A model generated the notes under the pieces. That model saw only the letters and a list, made by a program, of their open reading frames with translations, was not told the DNA's origin and searched no databases. A stretch of DNA of 64,000 nt from Candidatus Saccharimonadota bacterium (GTDB lineage Bacteria; Patescibacteriota; Saccharimonadia; CAILAD01; GCA-016700035), in contig JAXLZV010000001.1 in NCBI GenBank assembly GCA_046350755.1, positions 480,823 through 544,822 of the forward strand. Direction: 5' to 3'. Numbering within the stretch: position 1 is the first letter of the stretch; each line of letters begins with the position of its first letter. Shown one piece after another: positions 45,497 to 64,000 of the stretch. Position numbers and translations under genes: made by a program.

Positions 45497-45503
45497 TATT
45501 TCT

Positions 45504-45533
45504 CCCCCGTCAGAAATGGCGGGGTATTTTATT
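45504..45533 (+). terminator. rho-independent terminator
   Basis: CCCCCGTCAGAAATGGCGGGG followed by TATTTTATT. Confidence 0.6.
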
Positions 45534-45599
45534 GCCTGTAGTTTCGCTGCCGAACAAAAACCGGGTATACTAGAGACGAAAAGCATTCCTTTCATATAT

Positions 45600-47366
45600 A
45601 TGCAGTCTGATAAATTTACCATCCCTAATCCAAAGCATCTCGAACTTTGGCAGAAGCTTCTGCTAGGTTTCTTGATCGTTGGCTTATCGATATTAGCTGT
45701 CCTAGCAGCAATGCGCATCGCCTACAATGGGCGTCTTTTGCCAGGAACAAAAGCCTACGGCATATATGTCGGCGGCATGACAAAAGCCGATGCAATAAGT
45801 CTTTTGCAACGCGAGACCGATCAATATGTGAGCTCGTCGACCATTATCGTAAACGCCCCGGGAGTAAACCCACTATCCATTCCCGCAAGTGAGGTTGAGG
45901 TTCAATACAATCCCGAAGCTATCGTCGACGAGCTTTATAAGCTCGGACGTGATGGTCAGCTCATGAATCAGCTGAGTGAGCAAGCTCTACTCCTCGTTGG
46001 CGCCCAGCAGCTGCCGACCGGGCAAGTGAGCTATAACCCGTCTAAACTATACGCCACTATTCAGCCCGCTTATGCCGCCCTCAATAAGCCAGCACAAAAT
46101 GCCAATTACGCAATTTCAAAAACCGGCGCACTCATCATTAACCCCGAAAAGTCCGGCCAACGACTCAACCTAGTGGCTTTTATCGGGAATTATGAAGCAC
46201 TCATCACCAACCTCGAACGAGGCGCCACCACCATACAGGCTAAATCACAGGCCGCTGCCATACCAAGTAGTGCTTTAGAATCCAAGCGCAATGCGCTTAC
46301 TCCCTTCATCTCATCACCACTCACACTCACTTATAGCTCAAAGACTTGGAAAATCCCGACCGCCGAGGTGCTGGGCTGGTTGAGTTACTCAGCTCAACAA
46401 GGTCCGGAGAAAAGCGATCTCTTGAATAATTATTACGCAAGCACACGGGTATCGCGAGCCGACGTCGACTTTGATACTGCCCGCATCAGCAGCTACCTTG
46501 GCGTCATTGCTAAAGACGTCAATCAGCCAGCCGTTGATGCCAAGCTTACTATTTCCGGTGACCGAGCCAGCATCTTCCAACAGAGTCAGGATGGTAGGGC
46601 TTTGGATACTGCTACCACATCAAAGACTATTATTGAGAATTTTCGAGCCAGCCAGCCGGCCTCCACTCTACCAGCTACCGTCGTCGTCACGAAGGCTGAT
46701 GTAAATGACAGTAATATCGATCGACTCGGCATTAAAGAATTGCTGTCTGAGGGGGTTACCTATTTCCCAGGCTCGAGCGCAAATCGCATTGTCAACGTCC
46801 GCGTTGGGTCGAGTAAATTCAATGGAGTCCTCCTCAAGCCTGGCCAAGTATTTAGCTTTGGACAACTCTTAGGTGACGTCGGCCCCGAGCAGGGCTATAG
46901 AGAGGGTCGGGTCATCCTGGAGGGCCGTCAGGAGAGTCAGTATGGTGGTGGCTTATGCCAAGTGAGCTCAACGGCGTTTCGAGCGGCCCTACTCGCCGGT
47001 TTACCAATACTTGAGCGCTACAACCACTCATTTGCTGTCAGCTACTACACTGCCCCATATGGCGTTCCCGGAATTGATGCCACTATCTACTATCCCCAAG
47101 TTGATTTTAAATTCCGCAATGACACCGATGCGTATATTCTCATTCAAACCGAGATGGTTGGCACCACTCTAAAATTCCGCTTCTTTGGCACTAAGAAAAA
47201 AGAGGGAGTTATTCGCGGACCAAACTTCATCTATGGATCAAACGACCCTAACCAACCTTCAAAGACCGTGTTCTATCGAGATATTAAGGTCGGAAATACC
47301 GTCGTCAAAACTGATACTTTTTACACGACCTATAAGTCTGCCGCTGATTTTCCAGCAGTCAATTAG
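45600..47366 (+). CDS. VanW family protein
   Basis: Start refined to MQSDKF at about 45600. The track TTG start at 45378 overlaps the upstream gene and its terminator. N-terminal TM. GGGLCQVSSTAFRAALLAGL and the C-terminal YYPQVDFKFRNDTD... are typical of VanW. Confidence 0.65.
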   Translation: MQSDKFTIPNPKHLELWQKLLLGFLIVGLSILAVLAAMRIAYNGRLLPGTKAYGIYVGGMTKADAISLLQRETDQYVSSSTIIVNAPGVNPLSIPASEVEVQYNPEAIVDELYKLGRDGQLMNQLSEQALLLVGAQQLPTGQVSYNPSKLYATIQPAYAALNKPAQNANYAISKTGALIINPEKSGQRLNLVAFIGNYEALITNLERGATTIQAKSQAAAIPSSALESKRNALTPFISSPLTLTYSSKTWKIPTAEVLGWLSYSAQQGPEKSDLLNNYYASTRVSRADVDFDTARISSYLGVIAKDVNQPAVDAKLTISGDRASIFQQSQDGRALDTATTSKTIIENFRASQPASTLPATVVVTKADVNDSNIDRLGIKELLSEGVTYFPGSSANRIVNVRVGSSKFNGVLLKPGQVFSFGQLLGDVGPEQGYREGRVILEGRQESQYGGGLCQVSSTAFRAALLAGLPILERYNHSFAVSYYTAPYGVPGIDATIYYPQVDFKFRNDTDAYILIQTEMVGTTLKFRFFGTKKKEGVIRGPNFIYGSNDPNQPSKTVFYRDIKVGNTVVKTDTFYTTYKSAADFPAVN

Positions 47367-49540: not shown

Positions 49541-49577
49541 GTAAACTACAGATAAGACGAATGTGAGGAGGGTGAGT

Positions 49578-50981
49578 ATGGGGCAAGCGCTCCCAGACTA
49601 TAATTCAATTTGGCAATCTGTCCTTGGTGAACTCGAGGTCACGATTAGTGGTAATAGTTTTAAGACATTTCTCGAGCCAACCCGGCTTGAAACCCTTGAA
49701 GGTGATCAGGCGACGATAGCTGTACCTAATCCATTTTCAAGTGCTCAGATCAAAGCGCGCTTCGAGGCTGATCTGATTCAAGCCCTTCAGCAACATGCCC
49801 CTCAGATAAAAAGTCTCGAGTATGTCGTGCGAGCCGACCAAACCACGGAACTACCAAAAGAAATGTCAGCTTCGCGCAGTAGTCGGACTTCAAAATCTAA
49901 ACCCAGCCAGTCGACTCCACAACCAAACCTTTTTAATCAACAGCAACATCTTGTCGATCGCTATCACTTCGAGAACTTTGTAGTCGGCAGCTCAAACCGG
50001 CTCGCCTACTCGGCTGCTCGCTTGGTCGCTGAAAAACCCGGTACAGACTACAATCCACTCTTCCTATACGGACCAGCCGGAGTCGGTAAGACTCATCTGA
50101 TGTGGGGGGTCTATGGTGAACTCAAGCGCCGCAATCCTAATCTTGAGCTGATGTATATTACTATTGAAGAGTTTTATAAGTCATTTGTTGATTCAGTCCG
50201 TAAGTCCGAAGCCTTTACGACAAAATATCGTGAGGTCGACGTATTATTCGTAGATGATATTCAATTCATTAAGAAAAAAGAAACCACCCAAGAGGAGTTC
50301 TTCCACACCTTTAACTCACTCCACCAGGCTAACAAACAAATAGTCATCTGCTCTGACCGACCACCGAAAGAAATCCCCGAACTCGAAGAACGTCTGCGAA
50401 GTCGGTTTGAATGGGGTATGGTGGTCGACATTCAGCCACCTGATCTAGAAACCCGCGTCGCTATCATTCAGTCCAAAGCCGAGGCAAAGAACTTTGCCAT
50501 CCCGATGGAAGTAGCTGAAGCAATCGCTGAGAGGATCTCAACCAATATTCGCGAGCTAGAGGGTGGCTTTAATAAGGTGGTCATGCAGTGTGAATTACAC
50601 GGTGATACCCCAACCATCGAACTCGTCGATCAGATTCTTGGCGGTACCTCGACACCAACAACTGGTCGCCGCAAACCAAGTCCTAAGCAAGTCATCGATG
50701 AAGTCGCCGGCTATTACGGGCTCTCAACTACCGATCTCTCGGGTAAACGCAGGAGTAAGGATATCGTTATGCCGCGCCAAATCGCGATGTATCTCTTACG
50801 GTCGGAGCTAGAGCTGTCATTTCCGCAGATCGGCGGACACCTCGGTGGGCGCGACCATACCACTATCATGTATGGCTGCGAGAAAATCACTCTTCTTATA
50901 AAAGCAAAGGATCCAGTCACTCATGACATATCTGAAGTTCGTCAACGACTTCATCACGAGTTTGCGGGAGCTAATTCATGA
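49578..50981 (+). CDS. dnaA: chromosomal replication initiator DnaA
   Basis: ATG at 49578 preceded by GAGGAGGGTGA. The track GTG at 49563 sits inside the RBS. AAA+ Walker A GPAGVGKTH and a domain IV helix-turn-helix. Confidence 0.9.
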   Translation: MGQALPDYNSIWQSVLGELEVTISGNSFKTFLEPTRLETLEGDQATIAVPNPFSSAQIKARFEADLIQALQQHAPQIKSLEYVVRADQTTELPKEMSASRSSRTSKSKPSQSTPQPNLFNQQQHLVDRYHFENFVVGSSNRLAYSAARLVAEKPGTDYNPLFLYGPAGVGKTHLMWGVYGELKRRNPNLELMYITIEEFYKSFVDSVRKSEAFTTKYREVDVLFVDDIQFIKKKETTQEEFFHTFNSLHQANKQIVICSDRPPKEIPELEERLRSRFEWGMVVDIQPPDLETRVAIIQSKAEAKNFAIPMEVAEAIAERISTNIRELEGGFNKVVMQCELHGDTPTIELVDQILGGTSTPTTGRRKPSPKQVIDEVAGYYGLSTTDLSGKRRSKDIVMPRQIAMYLLRSELELSFPQIGGHLGGRDHTTIMYGCEKITLLIKAKDPVTHDISEVRQRLHHEFAGANS

Positions 50982-51019
50982 ACTCAGCCGGCAGAATAAA
51001 AGCGTATTTCGGGCAAACA

Positions 51020-51335
51020 TTCGGTTTTTGTCCACAGCTTACTTGTGGACAACCTATGGATAACTCCGTGGATAGTGTGTGGAAGAAATGTAGAGAAGCT
51101 GTCGACAACTCCCTTTCCCCTCCCCAGCTTATCCCCCGCGCGAACCGGCTCTTCCCCAGTTCGCGACTTGTCCCCAGTCTTATCCGCAACTGCACACACA
51201 GCTTATCCAGAGTCACACAACGAGCCAATAACAGGTTTAAAATCCGCCCATTATCAACTTATCCCCGCTTTCCACAGCACCCATTACTACCACTACCATA
51301 TAGTTATATAAGTATAAGAAAGAATCGAAGAGGAT
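51020..51335. other. probable oriC: dense DnaA-box array plus an AT-rich unwinding element between dnaA and dnaN
   Basis: At least 8 boxes with 7-8 of 9 matches, including TTGTCCACA, TGTGGACAA, TATGGATAA, TTATCCGCA, TTATCCAGA, TTATCAACT and TTATCCCCG. An AT-rich stretch ccatatagttatataagtataagaaagaa lies at about 51295-51330. Confidence 0.6.
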
Positions 51336-51341
51336 AGAATT

Positions 51342-52439
51342 ATGAAAGTTTCAGTCATGCAAGACAACTTTGCCAAAGCCGTTGCTACAGTTAGCCGAGT
51401 AGTTGGATCACGTACTAGTTTACCGATTCTTGCAAATGTACTTATTCAAGCCGAAGGTTCCAAGTTATCAATCTCAGCAACAAATCTTGAGATTGCTTTG
51501 ACGGCCGTTATAAATTGTAAAGTTGAGCAGCCTGGGGCAGTTTCGGTACCGGCTCGCCTACTTCTTGAAATAACCCAAGGCTTACAGAGCGAGAAGATCC
51601 AGCTTACCAGTGAGGATACTCAGCTTGAGCTCGCGGCTGCCGGTGCCCAGGCCACTCTTCAGGGGATGCCAGCCGATGAATTTCCGGTGATTCCTGAGGT
51701 GAGCTCTGGTCAGAAGATTATGCTCTCCACTCAGGTTCTTAATGATACCCTTACGAAAGTTGCCATTGCGGCTTCACTCGATGAGTCGCGACCAGTCTTA
51801 GCGGGGGTTTTCATTCGCGCCCAGGGAGATAAGCTGACCTTTGCGGCCACCGATAGCTATCGCTTAGCTGAGGCTACCGTGCAGGACGCAAAGCTCAAGG
51901 ATTTCTCACTCATCCTACCTCTCCGCACTGTCCAAGAAGTCTTGCGCCTGATTGGTCAAGCTCATGAAGCCGAAGTAGGCTTTGAGTTTGGAACTAGCGA
52001 AGCCCGCATCACAGTTGGCGAGACTACTCTCGTTACCCGTCTGATCGAGGGAAGTTTTCCCAATTATGCACAGATTATCCCCGATAAATCGGCTAGTACT
52101 ATTCGCTGCGCGCGCAGTGAGCTGACTCAGGCCGTGCGTCTAGCGAGTGTGTTTGCTCGCGAGAGCGCTCACACCATTACACTTGATGCCGGTAAAGACA
52201 GGATTAAGCTACATGCAGAAGCGGCTCAAGTCGGCGAAAATACTTCCGAGGTTACTGCTAAGCTAACTGGTGGAGGCGGCATTATCTCACTCAACTCTCG
52301 GTTTCTTCTGGACGTACTCGGAGTCATTACGAGTGATGAGGTGGAGCTCAAGCTGAATGACAAGCTTGATCCTTGCCTCGTGGTACCGGTTGGTGATGAC
52401 GGTCACTATCTCCATCTGATTATGCCGTTACGGAGCTGA
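51342..52439 (+). CDS. dnaN: DNA polymerase III beta sliding clamp
   Basis: 365 aa in the canonical position and three-domain length. N-terminus MKVSVMQDNFAKAV. Confidence 0.9.
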   Translation: MKVSVMQDNFAKAVATVSRVVGSRTSLPILANVLIQAEGSKLSISATNLEIALTAVINCKVEQPGAVSVPARLLLEITQGLQSEKIQLTSEDTQLELAAAGAQATLQGMPADEFPVIPEVSSGQKIMLSTQVLNDTLTKVAIAASLDESRPVLAGVFIRAQGDKLTFAATDSYRLAEATVQDAKLKDFSLILPLRTVQEVLRLIGQAHEAEVGFEFGTSEARITVGETTLVTRLIEGSFPNYAQIIPDKSASTIRCARSELTQAVRLASVFARESAHTITLDAGKDRIKLHAEAAQVGENTSEVTAKLTGGGGIISLNSRFLLDVLGVITSDEVELKLNDKLDPCLVVPVGDDGHYLHLIMPLRS

Positions 52440-52448
52440 ACTTGACGC

Positions 52449-53498
52449 ATGCTCAAGCAGCTACATCTGTCGCATTTTCGCTCCTATAGTAGTTTGGAGC
52501 TAGAGCTGTCCGAGCAGGTACTGTTGATTCTCGGCCCGAATGCAACCGGCAAGACGAATATCCTCGAAGCAATGTATGTGGCGGCAACTGGTCGATCGTT
52601 TCGTGGCAATGATGAAGAGCTCGTGCAGCACAGTGCGCCTGGCTTCCGCGTAGATGCCACTCATGACGACGAAGTGATTACGATTACCTACCAGGCCACT
52701 CTTAAGAAAAAAACACTCCAGCGCGACGCTGTGCGCCTGAGCCGTGCTACCCTACTAGGACGTCATCCGGTCGTGCTGTTTGAACCAAATGATTTATTAT
52801 TACTTTCCGGCCCACCAGAGCGTCGCCGTCGCTACCTCGACCTGATTCTTGCTCAGACAGATAGCCAGTATCGTCGAGAACTCCAACTCTATAAGCGCCT
52901 ACTGAGACAACGTAATGCCCTCCTCTGGCGGAATCGACGCGACACGATTAGCCGGCTTGATGATCAGCTTTTCATCCTTGAGACCCAGATGGCTGGGCCG
53001 GCTGAGAATATTTCTCAAGCGCGGGTTGAGTTCATTCGCCAGCTCACGCAGCTACTGAATGAACTAGTTGGTCGCATCTCAGAGAGGTCCCATAGCCTGG
53101 CGGTGCATTTTAGTGAAAAGAGTTCAGATATCTTAACTCGTTATCAAGAGCGACGAGAGCGAGACATAGTGCTTGGTACGACATCAGTTGGGCCACATCG
53201 CGAAGATTGGACTATCGAGTTTGATGGTCATCCCCTAACCGCGACTGCTTCACGCGGCGAGGTGCGGACGACACTTCTGGCTCTGAAATTAGCTGAGCTT
53301 GATTATGTGCGGGCTCATACACAGGGAGGCGCCCCGACTCTCCTGCTAGACGATGTCTTTAGTGAGCTCGATGAAGCTCGTCGGCGCGCTTTGATCCGTG
53401 AGCTCGATGCGGTGCAGACGATCATCACCAGTACTGATATCGATCGTCGCCTCAAGCTACCCGCTCAGACGCTCGATCTCACGAGGCCGAGTTCATGA
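52449..53498 (+). CDS. recF: DNA replication and repair protein RecF
   Basis: Walker A GPNATGKTN and the SMC-like signature. 349 aa. Confidence 0.9.
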   Translation: MLKQLHLSHFRSYSSLELELSEQVLLILGPNATGKTNILEAMYVAATGRSFRGNDEELVQHSAPGFRVDATHDDEVITITYQATLKKKTLQRDAVRLSRATLLGRHPVVLFEPNDLLLLSGPPERRRRYLDLILAQTDSQYRRELQLYKRLLRQRNALLWRNRRDTISRLDDQLFILETQMAGPAENISQARVEFIRQLTQLLNELVGRISERSHSLAVHFSEKSSDILTRYQERRERDIVLGTTSVGPHREDWTIEFDGHPLTATASRGEVRTTLLALKLAELDYVRAHTQGGAPTLLLDDVFSELDEARRRALIRELDAVQTIITSTDIDRRLKLPAQTLDLTRPSS

Positions 53499-53767
53499 GT
53501 TTTGAAAGGCTTGGCGACGCCCTGAATCGTAAGGATATTGATCAGCATGAGGATCTGCTGGCTTTCTTTGATCTGGCGAAATCAGTGATTGCTCGTCGCA
53601 GTGGCGTGAAAGTCGATGCGGTGAGTTTTAAAAATGATATTTTGCGTATCGCGGTATCGCACCCGGTTGAAGCTAGCGAGATTCGCTTACGTCACATACA
53701 GATAGAGCGTGAAATTTCCAAAAAATCCGGACGTAAGCTCGAGCGGTTACAGGTCCGCGTTTTATAA
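53495..53767 (+). CDS. DUF721 (DciA-like) protein
   Basis: 90 aa reading MSFERLGDALNRKD... ATGA overlap with the recF stop, in the usual post-recF position. Confidence 0.65.
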   Translation: MSFERLGDALNRKDIDQHEDLLAFFDLAKSVIARRSGVKVDAVSFKNDILRIAVSHPVEASEIRLRHIQIEREISKKSGRKLERLQVRVL

Positions 53768-55090
53768 CTTAAGCTGATATATTTTACCAACCAAACCTTC
53801 TCCGAGCGTATAGGTACTGACAGTTAATGAGTTATTAATCTTGTCGAAGTACGCATCATATACGCCAACGTTACTGTAGTTAAAAGTGGCTTGCTTGATG
53901 GCTATCTGAGTCTGAGAGTCGTAAATCCAGATCGCACCTTTTTCGACGTAGCTCAGCTTGGTATTGCTGACCCAGCGGATAGAGTTATTCTCAGCTCCGG
54001 TTTGGGCGAGCACGGTAGTAATGTTGCCAGTATTGATATCGAGGATATGTACGGTTTGGTCGGTAATAAAGGCGAGCTTATTGCCGTCGAGAGACCAGCT
54101 AGAGCCCTCCTCTGTCGTCGCGTCTTTATCGGTGATTTGCTGGACGGTTTTTCGGTTTTTCACATCGTAGATACTCATCTTCAGTGGCTCGCGTGGAGTT
54201 TCCTTTTGGTTAGGTTGATTATCGACAACCCCTTCTTCGCCGATAGTTATTTCCGGCTGTGAAAAGAGTACGATCAGGCCGTTTTTAGACAGAGTAAAAC
54301 TCGAGTTAATGCTTTGGCCGTCAATCTGGATTTCTTCTGCATATTCGTCTGTCGAGCCCTGATAGTAGAGCTTATCGAGGTGACGCATGACTCGATCGCC
54401 ATTTTCATTGACGGCAATGTCATCGATCGAGAGCGTATCCGCTTCACCGCCGGGACCTTCTTCTGCAGCTTCTTTCGGATCGTTGGCGGGGGCCTCTTTT
54501 AGGCGGATTCCAAAGCTTGTGACGACTCCCCCGGGACTGAGCTTGTAGCTATTGTTAGTAGTGTCGCGGAAATAACCGAGGCCGTACTGCACCCAGTCAA
54601 GCTGAGTAATCGTATAGTCTTCGATGTAGGGTGCCCCCTCAGTTTGCGCATCGGGAATCGTGTAGATCGATTGGAAAGGAATATTGAGAAACTCTACCTT
54701 TGCGCCCTCGGTGACGATATCTTTCGCCTGGTAGTTGGCATACTCGCTGAGGTTCTGCGGATTAGTGAGATCAAGGGTGGTTTTTTGGGTTTGTCGAGCT
54801 TCAAGCTTTGTTGTGTAGCAGCTTTCTGCAGAGTCTGCCGAAGCAGTAATGGTATAGTCTCCAGGAGGCAGGCGCTTATCGACCTTCCCTTTGCCGATAA
54901 CTTCAGCCGATTGATTTTTTCGATTGACGATTGTCAGCTTAGCATTTGGTTGGTTAGTCTGAATGATGACGCGGCCAGTCGTGAAGTATTCGTAGATGAA
55001 TTGCGCGAGCAGGATGAGTAGGATTACCCCAGCTAGTCCAAGGATGATTCGGATGATGAGTGTGCGGTTGAGGGTTATAGTGGGCTGCAT
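53762..55090 (-). CDS. membrane-anchored secreted protein with a PEGA-like Ig domain and a PD40/TolB-like beta-propeller
   Basis: N-terminal TM, then LPPGDYTITAS (PEGA-like), then a beta-propeller-like C-terminus (SWSLDGNKLAF...). It is the last gene of the T4SS-like operon, 3 nt from the upstream gene. Confidence 0.45.
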   Translation of the reverse strand: MQPTITLNRTLIIRIILGLAGVILLILLAQFIYEYFTTGRVIIQTNQPNAKLTIVNRKNQSAEVIGKGKVDKRLPPGDYTITASADSAESCYTTKLEARQTQKTTLDLTNPQNLSEYANYQAKDIVTEGAKVEFLNIPFQSIYTIPDAQTEGAPYIEDYTITQLDWVQYGLGYFRDTTNNSYKLSPGGVVTSFGIRLKEAPANDPKEAAEEGPGGEADTLSIDDIAVNENGDRVMRHLDKLYYQGSTDEYAEEIQIDGQSINSSFTLSKNGLIVLFSQPEITIGEEGVVDNQPNQKETPREPLKMSIYDVKNRKTVQQITDKDATTEEGSSWSLDGNKLAFITDQTVHILDINTGNITTVLAQTGAENNSIRWVSNTKLSYVEKGAIWIYDSQTQIAIKQATFNYSNVGVYDAYFDKINNSLTVSTYTLGEGLVGKIYQLKL

Positions 55091-55093
55091 AGT

Positions 55094-56986
55094 TTACTCC
55101 GGTAATTTCGCAAATGCTTGAATGAGTATCGGCTGTGGATTTATGAGGGTGGCGCATTGCGCAGCACAGTTATCGCGCCCTCGACTAAAGCCATTTGGTA
55201 CCGGGCTAATATCGAAGTGTAAGTGTGGGCCGGTATTTTGTGCATCGGCGGCGGTGCCAACTACTCCAATAGCTTGCCCGGCCTGAACGACATTCCCTTT
55301 GTTCGCCTTATTCGAACCCTGTGGCATATGGGTGTAGAAGTACCATTTACCATCATTGCCGCGAATTCTCATATTTTGCCCATTTTTACTTGAGTAATTA
55401 CTCCCTTCGACGACTCCTCCGACCGCTGCCACGACCTCAGTACCAGTTGGAGCACCGATGTCGGCGGCATTATAGTCGTGGTGACAATTCGCCTGACTGG
55501 TATAACACCACTTAACTGGTGAGGCGTTCTTGATAGCTGTTTTAGTTGTTTTAAGCGGGAAGATAAAACCATCAGCGCTCACGCCGAGCCCACCAGCTTG
55601 GCCAGTTGTGGTCGCGATGGTTCCAGCTGCTATACAGTCTTGTCCGACTGCTGTAGCAGGTGCGGCAGCACCAATTCCACCCTGCAAGCTCAGATAAAAC
55701 GGTATCGCGCGGGTGATATAATTTTGCGTTTCTTTAGGAAGATTGGCGAGAGTATTCGCACCGGCAATCCGTCCGCCACCAGCATTGTAGGCTATGAGTA
55801 CGGTTACGACTGATGGATTAATGCTGTTTGGTCGTTCAATACTACCGACGGGAATACCGGCCTTACCACCACTATTGGCGATGTAGTTGGCAGCCCCGAA
55901 GGCGGCATCGGTAAGGTCTTGGATATCTTTTACTCCATCGCCATTGCCGTCTTGACCACTCGAGGCCCAAGTGGAGTTGAGGAATTGAAATGGCCCATTT
56001 GCCCCTTTATTCGAGCTGGCCCAGGCCTTGCCAGTGCCATATGGTGGTGGAGGATTTGGAAAGCCGCCCCCGTGCTCGATCCAGAAAATGGCTGTCAGGA
56101 TGCCAACATCGGTGCCAAATTTCGCCGCCGCTTTAGGGAAAATTGAGCGATACGGCTCGGGAATACTGGCGGGTAAGCTGGTGAGTGTACCGGTTGCCGC
56201 TGGGTCGGCCGGTTGAGCGGCGACATCGGTATTCGGTGGGGTCGAGCCACTGAATGTACTGTAGAGTACGACGCTATTAACGACCAGCTCAGCGAGGGCT
56301 TTATAGCCTGCAGCATCTGTGTGTACTCCATAGCTCGTTATCGGAAAAGCTGTCGTGGTCGGTGTCAGATTCTGTGGATCGGCCGTTGGGGCAATGAGTT
56401 TTGACCAGCTAATGACTTTATAGCCGAGGGATTGATTACTATAGATAGTCTTATTGACTTGTGAGTAAGCAGCTTGGTTATCTGAAGAGTAAACATCGAC
56501 CCAGAGCAGCTGGGCATCGGGGTTGATGCCACGGATTTTCTGAATCAATTGCGATTGTAGGGATGAAAAATTATTCTCGAGATTAGTGCCTAACTCGATC
56601 ACGATATACTTTGCTGATTTTACAAACTCCGTATCAGCGGTCACAGCATCAAGTCCACTCGGGGCGGCACTCTGCCCTCCCCTTTGAATACCTCGTGACG
56701 TAGCGACATTTAGTCGTGGAGTAAAGCCTTTCGAGCTGAACATACTTTCTATCCCGGCCGACTGCATACCAACGCCAATTGAATCACCCAGCAGGTATAC
56801 CGGCCCAGGGCCACCGGCTCCACGTCCTACCTGTTCATCGACGCCGCCAAAGCCACACAGCTCAGCATATTTATCGTAAAAAGGATAGCGTTCAATTCCC
56901 TGTCTTTGCTCGGAAGCCGCTAGGGCTGCAGTCGGTGAAAAGAATAGCGCCGCCAGAGTTATGAGCGTGAAGAGTTTTTTCATCAT
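55094..56986 (-). CDS. secreted triple-domain peptidoglycan hydrolase: SGNH/GDSL esterase, lytic transglycosylase (SLT) and M23 peptidase
   Basis: Signal peptide. VYLLGDSIGVG (GDSL) with a later DxxH-like motif. IEHGG...GANGPFQFLNSTW (SLT catalytic Glu plus the GxxQ motif). HHDYNAADIG...GPHLHFDIS (M23 HxxxD and HxH). Confidence 0.65.
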   Translation of the reverse strand: MMKKLFTLITLAALFFSPTAALAASEQRQGIERYPFYDKYAELCGFGGVDEQVGRGAGGPGPVYLLGDSIGVGMQSAGIESMFSSKGFTPRLNVATSRGIQRGGQSAAPSGLDAVTADTEFVKSAKYIVIELGTNLENNFSSLQSQLIQKIRGINPDAQLLWVDVYSSDNQAAYSQVNKTIYSNQSLGYKVISWSKLIAPTADPQNLTPTTTAFPITSYGVHTDAAGYKALAELVVNSVVLYSTFSGSTPPNTDVAAQPADPAATGTLTSLPASIPEPYRSIFPKAAAKFGTDVGILTAIFWIEHGGGFPNPPPPYGTGKAWASSNKGANGPFQFLNSTWASSGQDGNGDGVKDIQDLTDAAFGAANYIANSGGKAGIPVGSIERPNSINPSVVTVLIAYNAGGGRIAGANTLANLPKETQNYITRAIPFYLSLQGGIGAAAPATAVGQDCIAAGTIATTTGQAGGLGVSADGFIFPLKTTKTAIKNASPVKWCYTSQANCHHDYNAADIGAPTGTEVVAAVGGVVEGSNYSSKNGQNMRIRGNDGKWYFYTHMPQGSNKANKGNVVQAGQAIGVVGTAADAQNTGPHLHFDISPVPNGFSRGRDNCAAQCATLINPQPILIQAFAKLPE

Positions 56987-59900
56987 CTAGTCTCCATGCC
57001 CGATACTTGGACAATAGAGGAAGGTCGGTAGTCGATATTGATTCTCGATGCGCACGTGGAAGTGATTATCGTGATTGACGAGTGACTGCATTTTAAAGTT
57101 CACACCCTTCTGCTGCGCGTAGGTATTTGAGGCATTGATAACGTATGGATCATTAAAGAAGATATTGGTGACGATCCCGGTATCGACAAACATCTTGGCG
57201 AGTTCGAGGGTTTTTTCGCGCGAATAGCCCGGTCGCGGGATGTCAGCTACCCATTCATTGCCAACCCGTCCATCGAGGTCGACATCAACACCATTCTTAT
57301 GAGAAGCGTGCCCATCGGACGTAATTTCACCTATTTGTAAGTAGCCGTTAGGATATGTTTTTCTAAACTGCTGCGCTACTGTATAGATCATATCGATCAT
57401 CGCTTTATTGCCGCACATATCCCATTCTTGGCCAAAGCCAGTACCATTATCCCCGTCATAGATATATGAGCCGTCGACCGACCGAGGGAGCTTGTATGAG
57501 CCATTTGATTCGACCGGCCCGAGGTTGGGTGGTGAAATGAGGCCGGTGATAGTGGATCCTGTGCCCGTCCCTCCGGTCGCAGGAGCAGGACCTTCACCTG
57601 GTAGTGACGAATTGGCGTTCAGGCTGGTATCCTCTTTATCTGGATTTGATAGGTAGACCAGAGCATCGGCTTGCAGGTTGTAGAAGTGGTAGGCACCATA
57701 TCGAGTCTCGAGACTGTTGAGATTAGGGCTATTTGTGCTCTCAAACAGAGGCTTACAGTACTTGTCATACAGATCTTTTTTATCATCATCGGGGTATAGG
57801 AGATGGAAGCGACTCGGAATGAATTCCCGGTAGCAGAGCTCATAGTAGTAGAACTTCTGTAAGAGATCGGGGCGAGCCAGCTTTAAGCCTTCGATGAAGC
57901 GGGCATTTTGGACGGGGTCTATTTGACTGTAGATCTCCGGGATGCCGGCTGGATCAAGCTTGAGATTTTGGGAGTCGTATATCGAGGCGGCCATGGCGAC
58001 GCGTGATTTACCAGTCAGTAAAGCAGCAATGGTCCCCCGCTCGCCAGCTAGGTTGCGGATCGGACTAGCAACTGTTGCGATGACTGAGCCAACATTGCTG
58101 GCGACTTTTTGAGGCTTATCGGTGAAGGCAACGCGCAGACGACTCGTTAGTGAGCCGGGATTTTCTAGGTCAAACAGTCGGTAAGCCAGTCCCCGAGTTT
58201 GTTCGTCATAACTGCGAGCTAATTGAATAGATTCATCACGGGCGACAGCCTCGTTATTGGTGAGGAACTTACCACCCATGGCGAGTGATATGCCGTTCAT
58301 GTAGGCCTTCATACCGAAGTTCATGCGGTTGAAGTTTTGAGGACCATCTTCCGTGCCGGCAGTCGCAACGTTTGATTCGAGTCGGGTAGCTCGAAACAGA
58401 ATATCTTCATAGGTGAGATTATTATAGATCTGACTAATCGATTGAGATTTTTCTGGTCGAGAATAGTAATCGATGCTGGCCATCGCCTTTTTAAATATCG
58501 GATAGGCGTCATTCCAGAAGGCATTAGTGGCTTGAATCGAGGCCGGTGAGCTGTACTGACTCTTGTCTTGAGCAGCTTCACAGGGGCTCAGTCCATTTAC
58601 TGGTCGATTGACGTAGGCGAAGATTGCATCTAGCCCTTTTGTATATTGATCATCAATCTGTAATAGATTTTTGTCGCCAGTTGAATTATAGTAACCGACG
58701 ATTCTTGATACGGCATCAGGTTCGATAGCGATGCCGGTCGCTCGCCCGTCTAAGCTGTGATTGTATTCCTGCCCCGACTGCATGCCGGCAATCTTATAGA
58801 AGTCCTTATTTAGCTCATTAATATTGAGAAAACGCGCACGATTTGTATCGGCGTACGTCACTGCCTGCCAGCCAGCCACTGCTGCTGAGTTGATGCGATT
58901 CTTCACGCGAGCCCGATAGGTTTTTGTGGCTTCGGCTTCTGGCTTGAGGAGTCGATCGTAGAGATCGCAGACTGTATTGAGAGCTGCGCGCTTTGGTCGA
59001 ATCGCCAAGTCAGGATTTGGGTCATTAGCTGTCGATTCATCAGGGAGGGTTGTATAGAGTAAGAGATTTTTTGGTTCGATACCGCATTGGAGATCGTGAT
59101 TCATCTTATCGACGTCCTTATCCCAAAACTTGTCACCTTGTGGAACATAATTATTCGCGCAGTCGATAATGTCCTGACTATAGAGCCCTGCTGAGTATTT
59201 CTGCACACTTCTAGTACCGCCGAAAAATTCAAGCACTGCATCATCACTCGCTTTTACTTGTTCGGGTGTGGCTTGGCCGGCGACCTCATATTTACCACCA
59301 CGATTCCAGATGCGAGTCAGGGTTTTTTCACGCAGGGCTTTTTGAAGCTCAGAAGGTGGTTTATCGAGGTTGGCTGATTCTTCTGGCTCGGCATAGGCAT
59401 AGCGAACATTAAGATTCTTATTAACGCCATCGCGCACGAATTGGGAGCGCATCATCGCGTTGAAGATTGGGTATGAGTTGTTGATGCAGTTCGCGCGCGC
59501 CACCCCATCGAGCTCCTTACCGGGGTTAGTATTGAGTTGGATAGACTCGATGACGGAGCGTTTTTTGCCATCGACTGTTGAGACTACCTCTTTGGTCTTA
59601 ATTACACAGCGACTGTCATTTGGTAGGGTTTGGTATTTGGCCTTCTCCCAATCGATTTGCGAAAGCTTGTACTCATAAGTATCGATCGCCGGCTTCGCCG
59701 CAATGGCAGTTGCCGCAACGGCCGTCGGCGTGCCGGGCTTAACATCTACTTCGTAGGCAAGCTTACCAGCGCCACCATAGCTAATAACCGCCCCAACCAT
59801 ACCACCGATACCAGCTTTCATACCTGCCCAACCTAAGCTCAAGATGGCGCGCGGGTTATCCCAAGCGAAGAAGATAACCAGGAAGAAGATAATTATCGGC

Positions 59901-60457
59901 AGGAATGAGAGGAATATACCGAAAAAGATAATGTAGAGCCAGTAGCTTTGTTTGAATTTCTTGCCAGTTATCTTCTGAACGCCGGCCTCTACGGCATTTT
60001 TGGCCGCGACTACGGCGGTACCGATACCGGTTTTTGAAGCGGCGGCCTCGCCAACCTTGACCCCAGCTTCGAGCGCCGCTTCTCCCTTACCGTCTTCGCG
60101 AGCGGTGCGGCGGACATCATCTATCTCGCGTTTGGCGTTGAGGCCCTTTGTGGCGGATTTACCGATGGCACCACTGATCGATTTATTGGCTGCCTTAGTT
60201 GCTTCTCCACTGGTCTCATTAGCGATCTTAGTAGCTTCGCCACCTTTATTGGCAACCTTGGTAGCCTCCCCGCCTGTATTGGCGGTCTTAGTGGCTTCGC
60301 CGCCCTTACTGCTTCCGCCAGTATTGGTGGGGGTTGTACCGCCGCGGGCTTGGTCGGCGAATGATCCGCCGCTATTGGGTCCACCTGGCTTTGGCGCTTC
60401 GCGATAGTGTCGCCGTTGACCGTCCGAATGTATTGCTTCGTCCACCCTCCAGATCAT
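56987..60457 (-). CDS. VirB6-like polytopic protein (1,156 aa) with N-terminal GGEATKxAN repeats and a C-terminal LAS/M15-like zinc-peptidase domain
   Basis: Four tandem 11-aa KxGGEATKxAN repeats (DNA at about 60175-60320). TM helices YWLYIIFFGIFLSFLPIIIFFLVIFFAW and GWAGMKAGIGGMVGAVISYGG. A large extracytoplasmic region. C-terminal SDGHASHKNGVDVDLD ... NHDNHFHV (H-x6-D and H-x-H). Confidence 0.55.
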   Translation of the reverse strand: MIWRVDEAIHSDGQRRHYREAPKPGGPNSGGSFADQARGGTTPTNTGGSSKGGEATKTANTGGEATKVANKGGEATKIANETSGEATKAANKSISGAIGKSATKGLNAKREIDDVRRTAREDGKGEAALEAGVKVGEAAASKTGIGTAVVAAKNAVEAGVQKITGKKFKQSYWLYIIFFGIFLSFLPIIIFFLVIFFAWDNPRAILSLGWAGMKAGIGGMVGAVISYGGAGKLAYEVDVKPGTPTAVAATAIAAKPAIDTYEYKLSQIDWEKAKYQTLPNDSRCVIKTKEVVSTVDGKKRSVIESIQLNTNPGKELDGVARANCINNSYPIFNAMMRSQFVRDGVNKNLNVRYAYAEPEESANLDKPPSELQKALREKTLTRIWNRGGKYEVAGQATPEQVKASDDAVLEFFGGTRSVQKYSAGLYSQDIIDCANNYVPQGDKFWDKDVDKMNHDLQCGIEPKNLLLYTTLPDESTANDPNPDLAIRPKRAALNTVCDLYDRLLKPEAEATKTYRARVKNRINSAAVAGWQAVTYADTNRARFLNINELNKDFYKIAGMQSGQEYNHSLDGRATGIAIEPDAVSRIVGYYNSTGDKNLLQIDDQYTKGLDAIFAYVNRPVNGLSPCEAAQDKSQYSSPASIQATNAFWNDAYPIFKKAMASIDYYSRPEKSQSISQIYNNLTYEDILFRATRLESNVATAGTEDGPQNFNRMNFGMKAYMNGISLAMGGKFLTNNEAVARDESIQLARSYDEQTRGLAYRLFDLENPGSLTSRLRVAFTDKPQKVASNVGSVIATVASPIRNLAGERGTIAALLTGKSRVAMAASIYDSQNLKLDPAGIPEIYSQIDPVQNARFIEGLKLARPDLLQKFYYYELCYREFIPSRFHLLYPDDDKKDLYDKYCKPLFESTNSPNLNSLETRYGAYHFYNLQADALVYLSNPDKEDTSLNANSSLPGEGPAPATGGTGTGSTITGLISPPNLGPVESNGSYKLPRSVDGSYIYDGDNGTGFGQEWDMCGNKAMIDMIYTVAQQFRKTYPNGYLQIGEITSDGHASHKNGVDVDLDGRVGNEWVADIPRPGYSREKTLELAKMFVDTGIVTNIFFNDPYVINASNTYAQQKGVNFKMQSLVNHDNHFHVRIENQYRLPTFLYCPSIGHGD

Positions 60458-60460
60458 GTA

Positions 60461-62386
60461 CTAGACTCCCGGTGCCGTTCCGGACGCACCCGGTTCGTAC
60501 TGATTAGCTACCTGACTCGCATCGGCCACCCCAACAGTTCCCTGCTGGACTGCCTCCTCGGTGTTCTCAAGCCGTGATTGAGCATTTTGCATATCGCGTT
60601 CGAGTAATACCTGTGGGTTGGTGGTAATGAGCTGCTCTTCCATCGGGCTGGCAAGGATGCGGATAACAACGTGGTTTGAACCAGCAAAGAATAGCCCTTC
60701 ACCGACTGGGAACTGACTGAGGCGAGATTTTTCTTCGCTCGTTAGTTTGAAGGTTTCAGCGACGATATCGGCGGCTGATGGTGCTTGCTTGAGCAGTAGT
60801 TGCAGCGAGCTATTATTGACGACGGCTCGACCGAGTCGGTCTGACAGGAAGTCTTCTACGTCTTGTGAGATGGTGGTCAGTCCGAGGTAATACTTACGGG
60901 CACGCTTAGCAATCGAGAACATAAATGAAGCTGAGTCGGGGTGCTTCATGAGCTGCCAGGCCTCGTCGACGGCTAGGATTCGCCTGCGCTTATCAGTTTT
61001 TACGCGATTCCAGATGTAATTGAGGGTGATATACATACCGATCGGGCGTAGTTCATCCTCGAGGTCGCGGATATTAAAGACCACAAACTTATTATTTAGC
61101 TGAACATTTGACTGCTGAGAGAAGATACCTGAGAAGGTACCTTCGGTATAGCGGCGTAGCCGCGAGGCGATTTGTGGGCCGCTACCACCCATCGTGATGA
61201 GCGTGTTGTAAAGGTCACTCATAACTGGTGGCTGACTGCGGTGTGTGAGTGGGTCGTTCGTGATCCCCTTTTGGGCGTAGGTATTGATGAGGGCGAGGTC
61301 GAGATCTGATTCTTCGGCCGCCGAGAGCTCACCACACATTAGACGAATCAGGCCGTGTAGCATGATGATGTTGGCGCGCAGGGCATTATCAGCTTCTTCG
61401 GGGTCGATGACGATCGGGATGTCGAATGGATTGATGCGTGTATTGCTGGCTAGGGAGAGGTGTACGAAGCTCCCGCCGACAGCATCGCAGAGCGTGCGGT
61501 ATTCGTTTTCTGGGTCGATGATGATAACATCGGTGCCCATCATCAGCGATCGCAGGCATTCTAGTTTGACGGTAAAACTCTTACCGGCACCAGACTTAGC
61601 AAAGACCACCATATTAGCGTTTTCTAAGCTGAAACGGTCAAACAGGACGAGACCATTATTATGACGGTTGAGGCCGTAGAGGACTCCTTCATTGCGTGAT
61701 AGCTCAGCTGAGGTGAATGGGAAGCTGGTTGAGAGCGAGCCGGTATTCATATTCCGGTAGATGCCGAGCTGATCAGTACCGATCGGCAAGGTAGAGTTGA
61801 AGCCTTGCTCCATCTGAACGGTGGCAGGCTTGGTGTATACCAGGCTTGTGCCTAGAATGGACTCAATCTTCCGCTGGATAAGGTCGAGCTCCTCAACATC
61901 CTTACCATAGACTGTTAGGTAGAGGCCAAAGCGGAAGAAGCGCTCTTCACCAACTTGGAGTTTGTCGCGTAATTCTTCAGCATCGCCGATGGCTGCTTCA
62001 AGACCCGGATCACGAATCTTACCCTTTTCGGCATTGATCTGCACTGAGGCCTCGAGCTGACCAACTTTTTTCTTGAGGTTCTCGAGAACAACCCGACTTT
62101 CGACCGGCATAATATTGAGCGAGATATCGATGATCTCATCGAGATTGATAATTGGTGACAGCCAACCAGTGAAGAGAGTCCGTGGGTAGCCGTAGACGAA
62201 GAGAGTGCGGACGTAGCGCGTACCGACGATAAGATAATTATTCTCGATGGTGAATGAGCTCGGAGCAATAATGTCGCGCAGAGTTAAGATGCCTTCGCGG
62301 TAGGCCCGTTCGGCTTCCTGTTGCTGAGCCGCTGCCATATCAACAGCTGCTTGCTGAGCTGGATCGACTTTTGGTTTGCGGGCCAT
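60461..62386 (-). CDS. type IV secretion ATPase, VirB4/TraE/PrgJ-like (Gram-positive type)
   Basis: Walker A VFAKSGAGKSF (DNA at about 61567-61611) and Walker B ILAVDEAW. N-terminal pattern Y.R.LFVYGYPRTL..GWL typical of TraE/TcpF-type VirB4. 641 aa. Confidence 0.85.
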   Translation of the reverse strand: MARKPKVDPAQQAAVDMAAAQQQEAERAYREGILTLRDIIAPSSFTIENNYLIVGTRYVRTLFVYGYPRTLFTGWLSPIINLDEIIDISLNIMPVESRVVLENLKKKVGQLEASVQINAEKGKIRDPGLEAAIGDAEELRDKLQVGEERFFRFGLYLTVYGKDVEELDLIQRKIESILGTSLVYTKPATVQMEQGFNSTLPIGTDQLGIYRNMNTGSLSTSFPFTSAELSRNEGVLYGLNRHNNGLVLFDRFSLENANMVVFAKSGAGKSFTVKLECLRSLMMGTDVIIIDPENEYRTLCDAVGGSFVHLSLASNTRINPFDIPIVIDPEEADNALRANIIMLHGLIRLMCGELSAAEESDLDLALINTYAQKGITNDPLTHRSQPPVMSDLYNTLITMGGSGPQIASRLRRYTEGTFSGIFSQQSNVQLNNKFVVFNIRDLEDELRPIGMYITLNYIWNRVKTDKRRRILAVDEAWQLMKHPDSASFMFSIAKRARKYYLGLTTISQDVEDFLSDRLGRAVVNNSSLQLLLKQAPSAADIVAETFKLTSEEKSRLSQFPVGEGLFFAGSNHVVIRILASPMEEQLITTNPQVLLERDMQNAQSRLENTEEAVQQGTVGVADASQVANQYEPGASGTAPGV

Positions 62387-63351
62387 TAGACTCCCCCTCC
62401 AACTAATGGATTCTGTGGTGGGGCCGGCGGCGTTGGTGGGATTTGCTGAGGTGGTACGACTGGTGCTGGCTGGGCGGCCGTCGGTGGTGCCGACACCGGA
62501 CTCGACGCCTGGCTCCCAACGCCGTTACGCATGCCGCTGGTGTACATATCGTCTGGCTCAGGCTCAGGAGTTGCGTTATAGCTTCCATCTGGTATTGGCG
62601 GGTCATCCCCGCGCATAACAACCGGCGTAGTCATCTGATCGATGTCGACGAGATTTTGATTGACTGCTTCGTCTTGATTGTAAGCGGTGTAGAAGAGTTC
62701 GGTGATTTCCTGAGTGCTTAAGACGGCAGCTCGGATACCCATCTGAGCAAGCCCTTGCGCCACGAGGTTGGTGCGTTGAATCAGATCGCGTTTGCGCTGC
62801 TCAAACATCTCGGTTGTCTGTGTCTCATCAGAATTACTCTTAAATAAATCAGCCAGCTTAACGCCAGCGTTGTCGCGCTTCTTGCCTTTGAGCTCGAGAT
62901 AATACGGAACGACAATGTAGAACTCCTTGTTCATAATGTTGACCTGCTCGAGGAGACCGCGAATATTGTAGATGTAGTCTTCCATTAGCCCGGCAATCAA
63001 CGGATTTTCCTGGTTGGCTTGGAGGACCTCTAGGTTGTCGAGATAGTTGTCGAGCTCGAGCTTACGACTCCGGACGATGATTTGGATCGGAAAGTGGAGG
63101 CCGTTGAGAAAGCCCTGATAGGCATACTCGATAGCATCTTGCTCTTGGGGCGACTTGAGGTCGAAATTCAAGGCGCTACCGAGAATGATCATACGCAAAG
63201 AACCATCACGCATCACCACGATCCCGTCTTTAATCTCGGTAAACATCAGGTGGTTTTGCGTACTGGCACGCTGATCCTTCACGTCCTTAGGCGGCGTGAT
63301 GGATTTCGTAAATTCAGCTTGTTCGGGCGTCTGGGCAGCTTGATCTGCCAT
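62386..63351 (-). CDS. T4SS-associated protein of unknown function with a Pro-rich C-terminus, translationally coupled to virB4
   Basis: Start refined to the ATG (MADQAAQ) at 63351, which has a GGTAGGTG RBS. The track GTG at 63363 directly follows an in-frame TAG. Its stop and the virB4 start overlap as TAATG at 62384-62388. The N-terminal segment IKDGIVVMRDGSL...IVRSR is reminiscent of VirB4/TrbE N-terminal domains, but this is unverified. Confidence 0.45.
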   Translation of the reverse strand: MADQAAQTPEQAEFTKSITPPKDVKDQRASTQNHLMFTEIKDGIVVMRDGSLRMIILGSALNFDLKSPQEQDAIEYAYQGFLNGLHFPIQIIVRSRKLELDNYLDNLEVLQANQENPLIAGLMEDYIYNIRGLLEQVNIMNKEFYIVVPYYLELKGKKRDNAGVKLADLFKSNSDETQTTEMFEQRKRDLIQRTNLVAQGLAQMGIRAAVLSTQEITELFYTAYNQDEAVNQNLVDIDQMTTPVVMRGDDPPIPDGSYNATPEPEPDDMYTSGMRNGVGSQASSPVSAPPTAAQPAPVVPPQQIPPTPPAPPQNPLVGGGV

Positions 63352-63400
63352 AGGAGATAACACCTACCTTGTAATTAGTCTGTTTTAGAGACATCCATCC

Positions 63401-63529: not shown

Positions 63530-63991
63530 CTAGCGAACCTGTACACTTTCGCCGGCCTGTAACTGGCCGCGGCTGGCTACCTGCGCCACCTGAGCGACGC
63601 TCAAATGCGAGGCATCCATAACCTTTTTCAGTATAGCATTATCGGGTGTTGCCTGGGAGGTCTGAGCGGCGGTTTGTGGGGCTGGAACATCGGGGTTATT
63701 GAGCTGCTCCGTCATCTGTTGGCGAGCTTGTTCACGAATATCATGCTCGACGTTTTGGAGCATCTCCCCTACCCGCTGAGCTTGGGGAGCATTTTCGGCT
63801 TGAGCGATGACATCATCGCTGACTTGCATATCCTCGGCAGGCAGGATGGTTTTGGTAAGTTCGTCGGGCGTGAAGACACGTTCTGAAAATTGTGCCGCCC
63901 GATTCGTCTCGTCTGGGAGTTGAATCGACTCTGGCTTGGCATGGCCACGAGTATCGACGACGAGTGAGATCTGCTGGAGACGGCTGCGCAC
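63530..63991 (-). CDS. hypothetical acidic/Gln-rich protein, probably N-terminally incomplete at the window edge
   Basis: The reading frame stays open to the window edge (codons LDH precede the track's GTG). No recognisable domain. Confidence 0.3.
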   Translation of the reverse strand: MRSRLQQISLVVDTRGHAKPESIQLPDETNRAAQFSERVFTPDELTKTILPAEDMQVSDDVIAQAENAPQAQRVGEMLQNVEHDIREQARQQMTEQLNNPDVPAPQTAAQTSQATPDNAILKKVMDASHLSVAQVAQVASRGQLQAGESVQVR

Positions 63992-64000
63992 GTGGTCTAA

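Follow-up and report, generated by a model that had tools for sequence, protein, structure and literature searches.

We have studied a stretch of 64,000 nucleotides (the window) from a Candidatus Saccharimonadota bacterium and, within it, one large gene of the minus strand which belongs to the operon of a type IV secretion system (T4SS). The operon is tightly packed, with gaps of 0–3 nt between its genes. The gene in question, which we will call the target, lies between those for a VirB4-like ATPase and a secreted wall hydrolase; the features found are collected in Table 1. The target protein is identical to the Logan protein P0041 and agrees, except for the annotated start, with MFO0955470.1 of NCBI, from a metagenome-assembled genome (MAG) of Candidatus Saccharibacteria, on a contig of 644 kb. 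It is probably a membrane-anchored peptidoglycan endopeptidase, associated with the T4SS, which breaches the cell wall and has an exchangeable catalytic cassette. This reading is based on its domain architecture, on the LAS identity of its C-terminal domain, on the conservation of the active site, on the operon context and on the exchange of cassettes among its homologues. From these data we infer its topology, catalytic activity, substrate and possible docking role. A gene in the same operon position, SEML1_0007 of Southlakia epibionticum ML1, has been described as essential in the literature; by analogy the target may be essential as well.

Table 1. Features of the target, of its operon and of related loci. 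Positions refer to the window unless a locus is named.
Feature	Position	Strand	Remarks
PrgI-family (VirB3-like) protein, C-terminal part	63530..63991	-	Gene runs past the window end; 60% identity to residues 126-277 of L002 PrgI
TrsD/TraC-like protein (VirB4 N-domain homologue)	62386..63363	-	NCBIfam NF041427, weak; orthologous gene PF26593 TraC-like
VirB4-like ATPase, CD1110 family	60461..62386	-	NCBIfam NF045971, 376.8 bits; Pfam P-loop_TraG; 3 nt upstream of the target ATG
Target, whole open reading frame (ORF): T4SS-locus membrane-anchored LAS peptidase	56987..60457	-	1156 aa plus stop; ATG start
N-terminal tail, aa 1-170	59948..60457	-	Ala/Gly/Lys/Thr-rich; predicted disordered or loosely helical; presumably cytoplasmic
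Four imperfect tandem units, aa 51-91	60185..60307	-	10/10/10/11 aa; core GEATK-x-AN
Sole conserved transmembrane helix (signal-anchor), aa 172-198	59864..59944	-	Mean Kyte-Doolittle 2.55
Juxtamembrane amphipathic helix, not transmembrane, aa 200-226	59780..59860	-	Mean Kyte-Doolittle 1.0; Gly-rich
Conserved ectodomain, aa 228-945	57623..59776	-	Small beta unit (aa 284-308), then about 30 helices
Gly/Thr/Pro-rich linker, aa 946-985	57503..57622	-	After conserved YLSNPDKED; predicted local distance difference test (pLDDT) <50; recombination junction
C-terminal MepA-like (M74) LAS zinc peptidase cassette, aa 986-1156	56990..57502	-	
LAS motif 1, H1050-A-S-H1053-x6-D1060	57278..57310	-	Aligns with MepA H110/H113/D120
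LAS motif 2, H1129-D-N-H1132-F-H1134	57056..57073	-	Aligns with MepA H206/H209/H211
Secreted three-module wall hydrolase: SGNH/GDSL-like, SLT_2 lytic transglycosylase, M23	55094..56986	-	ATG directly after the target stop
Last operon gene, 442 aa: transmembrane helix, CarboxypepD_reg/PEGA-like, beta-propeller-like (WD40/PD40-like)	53762..55090	-	Weak Pfam matches
dnaA-dnaN-recF	49563-53498	+	Adjoining the T4SS operon
Extra membrane-anchored ORF between target homologue and lysozyme gene	L009 12771-13796; L010 12766-13719; L011 9276-9878		
Extra membrane-anchored ORF, further loci	L012 5396-6358; L013 9215-10159; L015 5306-5887		

Topology, ectodomain and genomic context

The target has one conserved transmembrane helix. 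It is present in all 31 full-length homologues, with a mean Kyte-Doolittle hydrophobicity of 1.6–3.0, and the AlphaFold2 model places a helix at aa 171–197. A first-pass annotation, made from the DNA letters alone, had described two long transmembrane segments, but our hydropathy scan gives a single strongly hydrophobic helix (aa 172–198) and only a weak one at aa 200–226. The latter has a mean hydrophobicity of about 0–1.1 throughout the 31 homologues and contains 5–11 charged or polar residues in most of them; in the target and its closest relatives there are 2–3 such residues, and it is modelled as a helix with a pLDDT of about 84. Two transmembrane helices would leave the peptidase in the cytoplasm, which contradicts the topology proposed in that same annotation, with the N-terminus inside and the ectodomain outside. 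The N-terminal flank of the true helix, KITGKKFKQSY, has a positive-inside character, with four Lys within the preceding 12 residues. The ectodomain contains conserved Cys residues: eight are invariant in A1, while in A2 three are invariant and four near-invariant. The Lys-rich flank and the conserved Cys in the large domain fit a type II orientation, so that the target is most likely a single-pass membrane protein with its N-terminus inside and its C-terminus outside.

A large outside region of about 700 aa had also been proposed after the hydrophobic segment, and here the annotation was right: an ectodomain of about 720 aa is present. It is the largest and most conserved part of the target and represents about 60% of its length. 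In the AlphaFold2 model, based on an alignment of 32 sequences, its pLDDT is mostly 70–92 at aa 228–940; the disordered stretches of the protein are the tail (aa 1–153) and the linker (aa 941–1021). A segment ESN-ATAG-EDGPQNFNRM, at about aa 693–712, is strongly conserved. We have found no match of the ectodomain in Pfam or PHROGs, nor any match of its family profile among all PDB sequences. Comparison of the fold with Foldseek gave no relative in the PDB (best probability 0.12) and nothing significant in BFVD (best probability 0.15). This ectodomain, helical for the most part and with Cys residues, has no detectable relative and is a new feature of the protein.

Two candidate identities of the ectodomain were considered and set aside. 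The top matches in BFVD are phage tape measure proteins, with a probability of at most 0.15 and a TM-score of about 0.07, and PHROGs gave nothing significant; the BFVD matches are not significant, since they are generic matches between long helices. The series ESN...GPQNF...AYMNG resembles ES, GLMQ and AYNxG, the motifs of SLT domains. A lysozyme or lytic transglycosylase was dropped as unsupported: the Glu of ES is replaced by Asn in homologues P0017 and P0019 and by Thr in P0020, and no lysozyme-like fold or profile was found in the ectodomain by Foldseek against the PDB, by the profile search of PDB sequences or in Pfam.

Proteins of this type are numerous. An exhaustive search with a hidden Markov model gave 292 cluster representatives at E <1e-30. 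Within the 150 representatives listed, a peptidase cassette forms the end of more than 80 proteins that have at least 850 aa, most of them with one N-terminal transmembrane helix; among the matches listed, 59 of these cassette-ended proteins also match the central scaffold. The SEML1_0007-type family is widespread but uncharacterised.

The genomic context is also conserved. The order TrbL_3, PrgI, TrsD/TraC-like, VirB4, target, hydrolase, recF-dnaN-dnaA recurs in the related loci L002, L007 and L009–L015. The synteny is complete wherever the contig reaches; VirB2-like pilins and TrbL_3 precede PrgI in such loci. The ten related genomic loci all come from MAGs of Saccharibacteria or Patescibacteria. 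The T4SS of Patescibacteria has been reported to be origin-proximal and MPF-FATA-like (Quinonero-Coronel et al., PMC12102498), and its placement in the window agrees with that report.

Epibiotic growth of S. epibionticum ML1 requires the T4SS (Wang et al. 2023, PMC10633639), in which there is no relaxase (PMC10633639; PMC12102498). SEML1_0007 lies directly downstream of virB4 in ML1; it has 3342 nt, codes for 1113 aa and is annotated as hypothetical (PMC10633639, Tables S1/S2). A single domain has been assigned in it, Hedgehog/DD-peptidase at aa 951–1105, and the gene is essential, with transposon sequencing (Tn-seq) scores GD/ES/ES (PMC10633639). It has also been termed a "peptidase homologue ... 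essential" downstream of virB4 (PMC12102498). The target corresponds to SEML1_0007 by position, size and domain layout: both lie between virB4 and a multi-domain lysozyme gene, beside dnaA-dnaN-recF, and have about 1100 aa with a C-terminal LAS fold. They differ in the peptidase, since the best structural neighbour of SEML1_0007 is M15B (VanY-type), whereas the cassette of the target is of the rarer MepA-like M74 type. We have found no published description of a single-pass topology, an orphan ectodomain or cassette exchange.

In monoderm T4SS operons of the ICEBs1 and Tn916 type, the VirB6-like ConG/Orf15 is encoded between virB4 and the wall hydrolase. The target occupies this position and it is large and membrane-associated; the first-pass annotation took it for a VirB6-like subunit of the translocation channel fused to a peptidoglycan peptidase. 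Position is all that favours such a fusion: the channel subunits VirB6, TrbL, ConG and PrgH share with the target their size and their proximity to virB4, and nothing else. VirB6 proteins are polytopic, with at least five transmembrane helices, against one conserved helix in the target. The profiles of TrbL (PF04610), TrbL_3 (PF19590), VirB6 and PrgH in Pfam and NCBIfam do not match it, at E<=0.1 for the full-length protein and <=10 for pieces of it, and hhalign gives a probability of 1% for its relation with the VirB6-like protein of L002. A separate TrbL_3 protein (PF19590) is encoded upstream of PrgI in L011 and L013; its equivalent in the window lies beyond base 64000. Furthermore, the VirB6-like genes of ML1 are SEML1_0011 and SEML1_0013, not SEML1_0007 (PMC10633639). 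The number of helices, the absence of profile matches and the separate TrbL_3 gene have led us to reject a VirB6 identity, and we consider the fusion very improbable.

The peptidase cassette and its exchange

The C-terminal domain is, by its sequence and its model, a LAS metallopeptidase of the M74 branch rather than of the VanY branch. A LAS/M15-like peptidase had been suggested in the first pass, with the motif pair H-x6-D ... H-x-H; the pair is present, as H1053-x6-D1060 and H1132-x-H1134, and the assignment can now be narrowed to MepA-like M74. The motifs read GHASHKNGVDVD at aa 1049–1060 and HDNHFHVR at aa 1129–1136. The six residues H1050, H1053, D1060, H1129, H1132 and H1134 are invariant in the five type-A cassettes. 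When aa 953–1156 are scanned alone, the Pfam profile PF03411 (Peptidase_M74) gives 28.3 bits, above its cut-off of 25, but the full-length protein stays below it, at 21.8 bits. The NCBIfam profile PRK09429 gives 20 bits against 272, so that the target is not a MepA equivalog.

Comparison with the PDB leads to the same family. A profile of the five type-A cassettes has its best match among PDB sequences in E. coli MepA (1tzp/1u10), and both motif regions are aligned. The AlphaFold2 model of the cassette alone has a pLDDT of 79 and a predicted TM-score (pTM) of 0.79. Its top five matches in the PDB by Foldseek are all MepA, with E from 1.6e-5 to 6e-5 and probability 1.0; they are followed by about 30 Hedgehog N-domains, with probability 0.92–1.0. 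In the full-length model MepA is the sole high-probability match. The search for LAS folds, which had been proposed as a check of the C-terminus, thus found similarity, with MepA and Hedgehog. A JGI fragment in the 90% cluster of the target bears the name "murein endopeptidase". The cassette would cleave peptide bonds of peptidoglycan in a Zn-dependent way.

E. coli MepA (MEROPS M74; PDB 1tzp, 1u10) is the best match of aa 986–1156 both in sequence and in fold, and it shares the six residues mentioned above. MepA is soluble and periplasmic, with about 270 aa, whereas the cassette of the target has about 170 aa, is 18–20% identical to it, and is tethered to a membrane-anchored scaffold of 950 aa encoded in a T4SS operon.

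The same scaffold is found with different peptidases. We extended the set of homologues with a search seeded by the ectodomain of L010. The homologues form two clades, about 25–35% identical in the scaffold, and both clades have members which end in a VanY/M15B domain (the majority), in an M74-like domain or in a PF26571-type domain (H-x6-D...H-x-H). M74-like cassettes are found in the target and in P0001, P0002, P0022, P0023 and P0029; those of PF26571 type in P0014 and P0020. An M23 cassette is present in P0031 and in five further representatives. Some homologues end in yet another kind of H-x6-D...H-x-H domain, and there are at least four cassette types in the wider family. Metal-binding motifs are kept in the alternative cassettes: SNHE..GEAID...WHW in VanY, HLHFE in M23 and H-x6-D...H-x-H in the others.

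On a neighbour-joining tree of the scaffold the cassette types are interleaved. P0027 and P0029 have 93% identity in the scaffold and carry different cassettes, VanY and M74-like; P0020, P0021 and P0023 have 76–79% scaffold identity and three different cassettes. In the pairs P0027/P0029 and P0020/P0021 the identity collapses inside the Gly-rich linker, just past the conserved LS-P-KED. Between the two clades each cassette type is 48–66% identical, versus 33–35% for the scaffold. The GC and GC3 contents of the target cassette show no anomaly with respect to its scaffold, so there is no compositional sign of a recent foreign origin. A new feature of the family is that the C-terminal peptidase is an interchangeable cassette, which is swapped between near-identical scaffolds at the Gly-rich linker.

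In some loci an additional gene changes together with the cassette. It is an ORF for a membrane-anchored protein, placed between the homologue of the target and the lysozyme gene; it follows the cassette type in five loci of clade 2 and it is also found in L015. The identity of this ORF is 31–40% among the VanY loci and 23–26% between VanY loci and the PF26571 locus, even when the scaffold is 78% identical. The clade-2 locus with an M74 cassette has an unrelated ORF of 200 aa in its place. VirB4 in these clade-2 loci varies with the scaffold, not with the cassette, and so do the hydrolase and the Big_5 gene. No extra ORF is found between target and hydrolase in the window, nor in L014, the other type-A locus of clade 1. 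The pattern resembles a toxin-immunity module. As neither the window nor L014 has the extra ORF, an immunity partner is not general and we take the pattern as a lead.

Possible roles of the target

Wall hydrolases of monoderm T4SS are believed to make way through the wall for the secretion apparatus (PMC12102498). The VirB1-like hydrolases, such as PrgK of pCF10, TraG of pIP501, CwlT of ICEBs1 and TcpG of pCW3, are encoded in T4SS operons, like the target, and contain domains that hydrolyse peptidoglycan. PrgK and TraG are anchored in the membrane by their N-terminus, as is predicted for the target. However, their architecture is different: in the VirB1-like hydrolases an SLT or lysozyme glycosidase is joined to a peptidase of CHAP, NlpC/P60 or LytM type and a large extra domain is lacking, whereas the target has a LAS peptidase only, together with the ectodomain of 720 aa and the tail of 170 aa, and the glycosidase resides in the next gene. 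Searches of Pfam, of PDB sequences with the profile and of structures with Foldseek gave no glycosidase domain in the target. In function it most resembles the membrane-anchored VirB1-like hydrolases (PrgK, TraG), yet it fails their usual domain definition.

Another comparison is with polymorphic toxins (CdiA-CT, Rhs, LXG) and with secreted effectors which hydrolyse peptidoglycan and have immunity partners, such as Tae/Tse of the type VI secretion system and X-Tfe of the Xanthomonas T4SS. The target family shares with these architectures a conserved N-terminal scaffold and a C-terminal enzyme domain exchanged between close relatives at a defined junction; in one of its clades an adjacent ORF changes with the cassette. 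It differs from them in that its cassettes are only wall metallopeptidases (LAS types or M23) instead of a wide range of toxins, it is membrane-anchored, there is no partner ORF in the window and its delivery to another cell is hypothetical.

The mechanism which we propose is the following. The disordered tail of about 170 aa, rich in Ala, Gly and Lys, would stay in the cytoplasm, and the signal-anchor helix at aa 172–198 would hold the protein in the membrane. The ectodomain of about 720 aa would project outward, with the MepA-like peptidase tethered at its distal end by about 40 aa of flexible linker, rich in Gly, Thr and Pro. The peptidase would cleave either the cross-links or the stems of the peptidoglycan peptides; the hydrolase encoded downstream, with its SGNH esterase-like, lytic transglycosylase and M23 modules, would cut the glycan strands and other peptide bonds. 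The two enzymes together would make a local opening by which the T4SS and the VirB2-like pilus might cross the epibiont wall, the host wall or both. The ectodomain, as the scaffold that stays constant in the family, would presumably dock on the extracytoplasmic side of the T4SS or form part of it, while the catalytic domain would be exchangeable.

Some results weigh against this wall-breaching endopeptidase. The M74 score of the full-length protein is 21.8 bits, below the cut-off of 25, and its best stretch covers about 60 of the 240 profile positions. In the model of the cassette the loop of motif 1 (domain residues 97–103) has a pLDDT below 50, and the TM-scores to MepA are modest, 0.40–0.48. 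The orthology with SEML1_0007 is judged from the position of the gene and from the length and domain order of its product, and the role of the 720-aa ectodomain is wholly deduced. As to the substrate, the data favour neither the own wall nor that of the host decisively. A host-directed polymorphic effector has to be weighed, in which tail, transmembrane helix and ectodomain would form a scaffold of the T4SS for delivery or presentation, and the cassette, matched to the host wall chemistry, would attack the actinobacterial host in its peptidoglycan where the two cells touch; in some lineages the co-swapped downstream membrane protein would be a cognate inhibitor, an immunity factor or a regulator. 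We give this explanation some weight, although we find it doubtful. It would account for the scattering of cassette types over the scaffold tree, as in P0027/P0029 and P0020/P0021/P0023, with the break in the Gly-rich linker, and for cassettes which are more conserved across clades (48–66%) than their scaffold (33–35%). Since close relatives should share the chemistry of their own wall, a switch of specificity among them would point to an external substrate. The clade-2 downstream ORF which co-varies with the cassette, while VirB4, hydrolase and Big_5 gene follow the scaffold, points in the same direction, and so does a T4SS which has no relaxase and is essential for epibiotic growth (PMC10633639; PMC12102498). 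However, the window and L014 lack the extra ORF, and its co-variation could reflect the length of the recombination tract alone. The transmembrane anchor argues for retention of the protein on the producer, unless cleavage releases it or it gets to the host through the contact. Moreover, all cassettes are wall peptidases of similar action, and redundancy would explain their swapping equally well. That the family as a whole is the host-facing "warhead" of the essential Patescibacteria T4SS, with a cassette which is matched to host peptidoglycan, is in some lineages exchanged along with a partner gene and helps to set the host range of these obligate epibionts, we regard as unlikely.

The target might instead be mainly structural: a stalk or adaptor of the monoderm T4SS spanning the wall, in replacement of parts of VirB8/VirB10 type, which are not detected in Saccharibacteria, with the LAS domain acting chiefly as an anchor that binds peptidoglycan. 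The ectodomain is by far the largest and most conserved part of the protein, few VirB8 homologues occur in Patescibacteria, with none detected in ML1 (PMC12102498), and LAS folds can be non-catalytic binding modules, as in Hedgehog, whose domains are among the Foldseek matches. Against such a stalk stand the six catalytic and zinc-binding residues of MepA, invariant in the type-A cassettes, and the metal-binding motifs retained in every alternative cassette type. Because the cassettes have been repeatedly replaced by other active-looking peptidases, catalysis itself appears to be under selection, and we consider a mainly structural role quite improbable.

The T4SS of Saccharibacteria was the first one shown to be essential for its own carrier (PMC10633639). 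The questions which surround it are its cargo and how it crosses two cell walls (PMC10633639, PMC12857230). In this context the key results are an outward-facing LAS peptidase, single-pass by its probable topology, an orphan ectodomain and a shuffled catalytic domain. They make a "hypothetical protein" of an essential T4SS testable in S. epibionticum, which is genetically tractable. If the cassette type tracks the wall chemistry of the host, it would be an uncommon molecular lead to the host specificity of members of the candidate phyla radiation.

The N-terminal repeats and the neighbouring genes

The N-terminal tail contains a tandem array, which the first-pass annotation described as four perfect repeats of 11 aa derived from DNA units of 33 nt. 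The units are in fact imperfect (KGGEATKTAN, TGGEATKVAN, KGGEATKIAN and ETSGEATKAAN), with spacings of 10, 10 and 11 aa; in the DNA, Tandem Repeats Finder gives a period of 30, with 2.7 copies and 73% matches. Since the pentapeptide GEATK occurs four times within 45 aa, the array is far beyond chance. We have surveyed 13 proteins more than 90% identical to the target, from independent ENA, JGI, NCBI and Logan assemblies. All 13 have four units, and their lengths are 1152–1157 aa. Their repeat regions differ by point substitutions and by indels of 1–3 aa, not by the number of units. In the four most divergent ones the identity is 59–93% in the repeat region versus 96–98% elsewhere. Distant homologues have a low-complexity tail, rich in Ala, Gly, Lys and Ser, with no GEATK repeat.

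The presence of the array in 13 proteins of separate assemblies excludes an assembly artefact, which had been contemplated. It had also been suggested that the array is phase-variable. In-frame tandem repeats in a disordered tail, which evolve faster than the rest of the protein, might be expected in a contingency element of variable phase or length. But DNA units which match at only 73% are a poor substrate for slippage, the number of copies is constant in the strain survey and distant homologues have no repeat, so that such an element is barely conceivable. The array is a lineage-specific trait of a fast-evolving disordered tail, neither a contingency locus nor an artefact. As for a flexible and cytoplasmic N-terminus, both parts of that suggestion are plausible: the pLDDT is below 50 at aa 1–153, and the Lys residues before the transmembrane helix agree with a cytoplasmic side.

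At aa 1–40 of the target (the region of position 60457 in the window) and of the homologues P0001–P0031 and P0046–P0101 there are short conserved motifs within the disordered tail. In clade 1 they are R-x-Y-[RK], near aa 15–20, and GS[FM]AD, near aa 30; in other clades there is a motif [LM]P[VI]SP. They may be docking sites for cytoplasmic parts of the T4SS.

The hydrolase encoded after the target is also a mosaic, as it is apparent in the window (55094–56986), in L002 (13376–15286), in L010 (13716–15464) and in L011 (9875–11107). Its SGNH/GDSL-like N-terminal domain is conserved, with 37% identity between the window and L002. The glycosidase in the middle is SLT_2 in the window and Phage_lysozyme2 elsewhere. 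The C-terminal peptidase differs between loci: it is of M23 or CHAP type, or lacking. The gene which closes the operon, of 442 aa, has no BLAST similarity to the Big_5-type protein of 224–264 aa found at the same position in L002, L007 and L009–L013. On the same ground we have rejected it as a counterpart either of the co-varying ORF or of the Big_5 protein.

Beyond the operon, an ORF of 3095 aa on the plus strand (29125–38412) has a HATPase_c domain at its C-terminus, in addition to NHL beta-propeller repeats and several FN3 domains; by its domains it looks like a giant surface-exposed protein of histidine-kinase type. Near the origin region there are also a VanW + PG_binding_4 protein (45378–47366, plus strand) and a glycosidase of the trehalase family (38432–39691, minus strand). 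Saccharibacteria have actinobacterial hosts whose envelopes contain trehalose, and this trehalase might be related to them.

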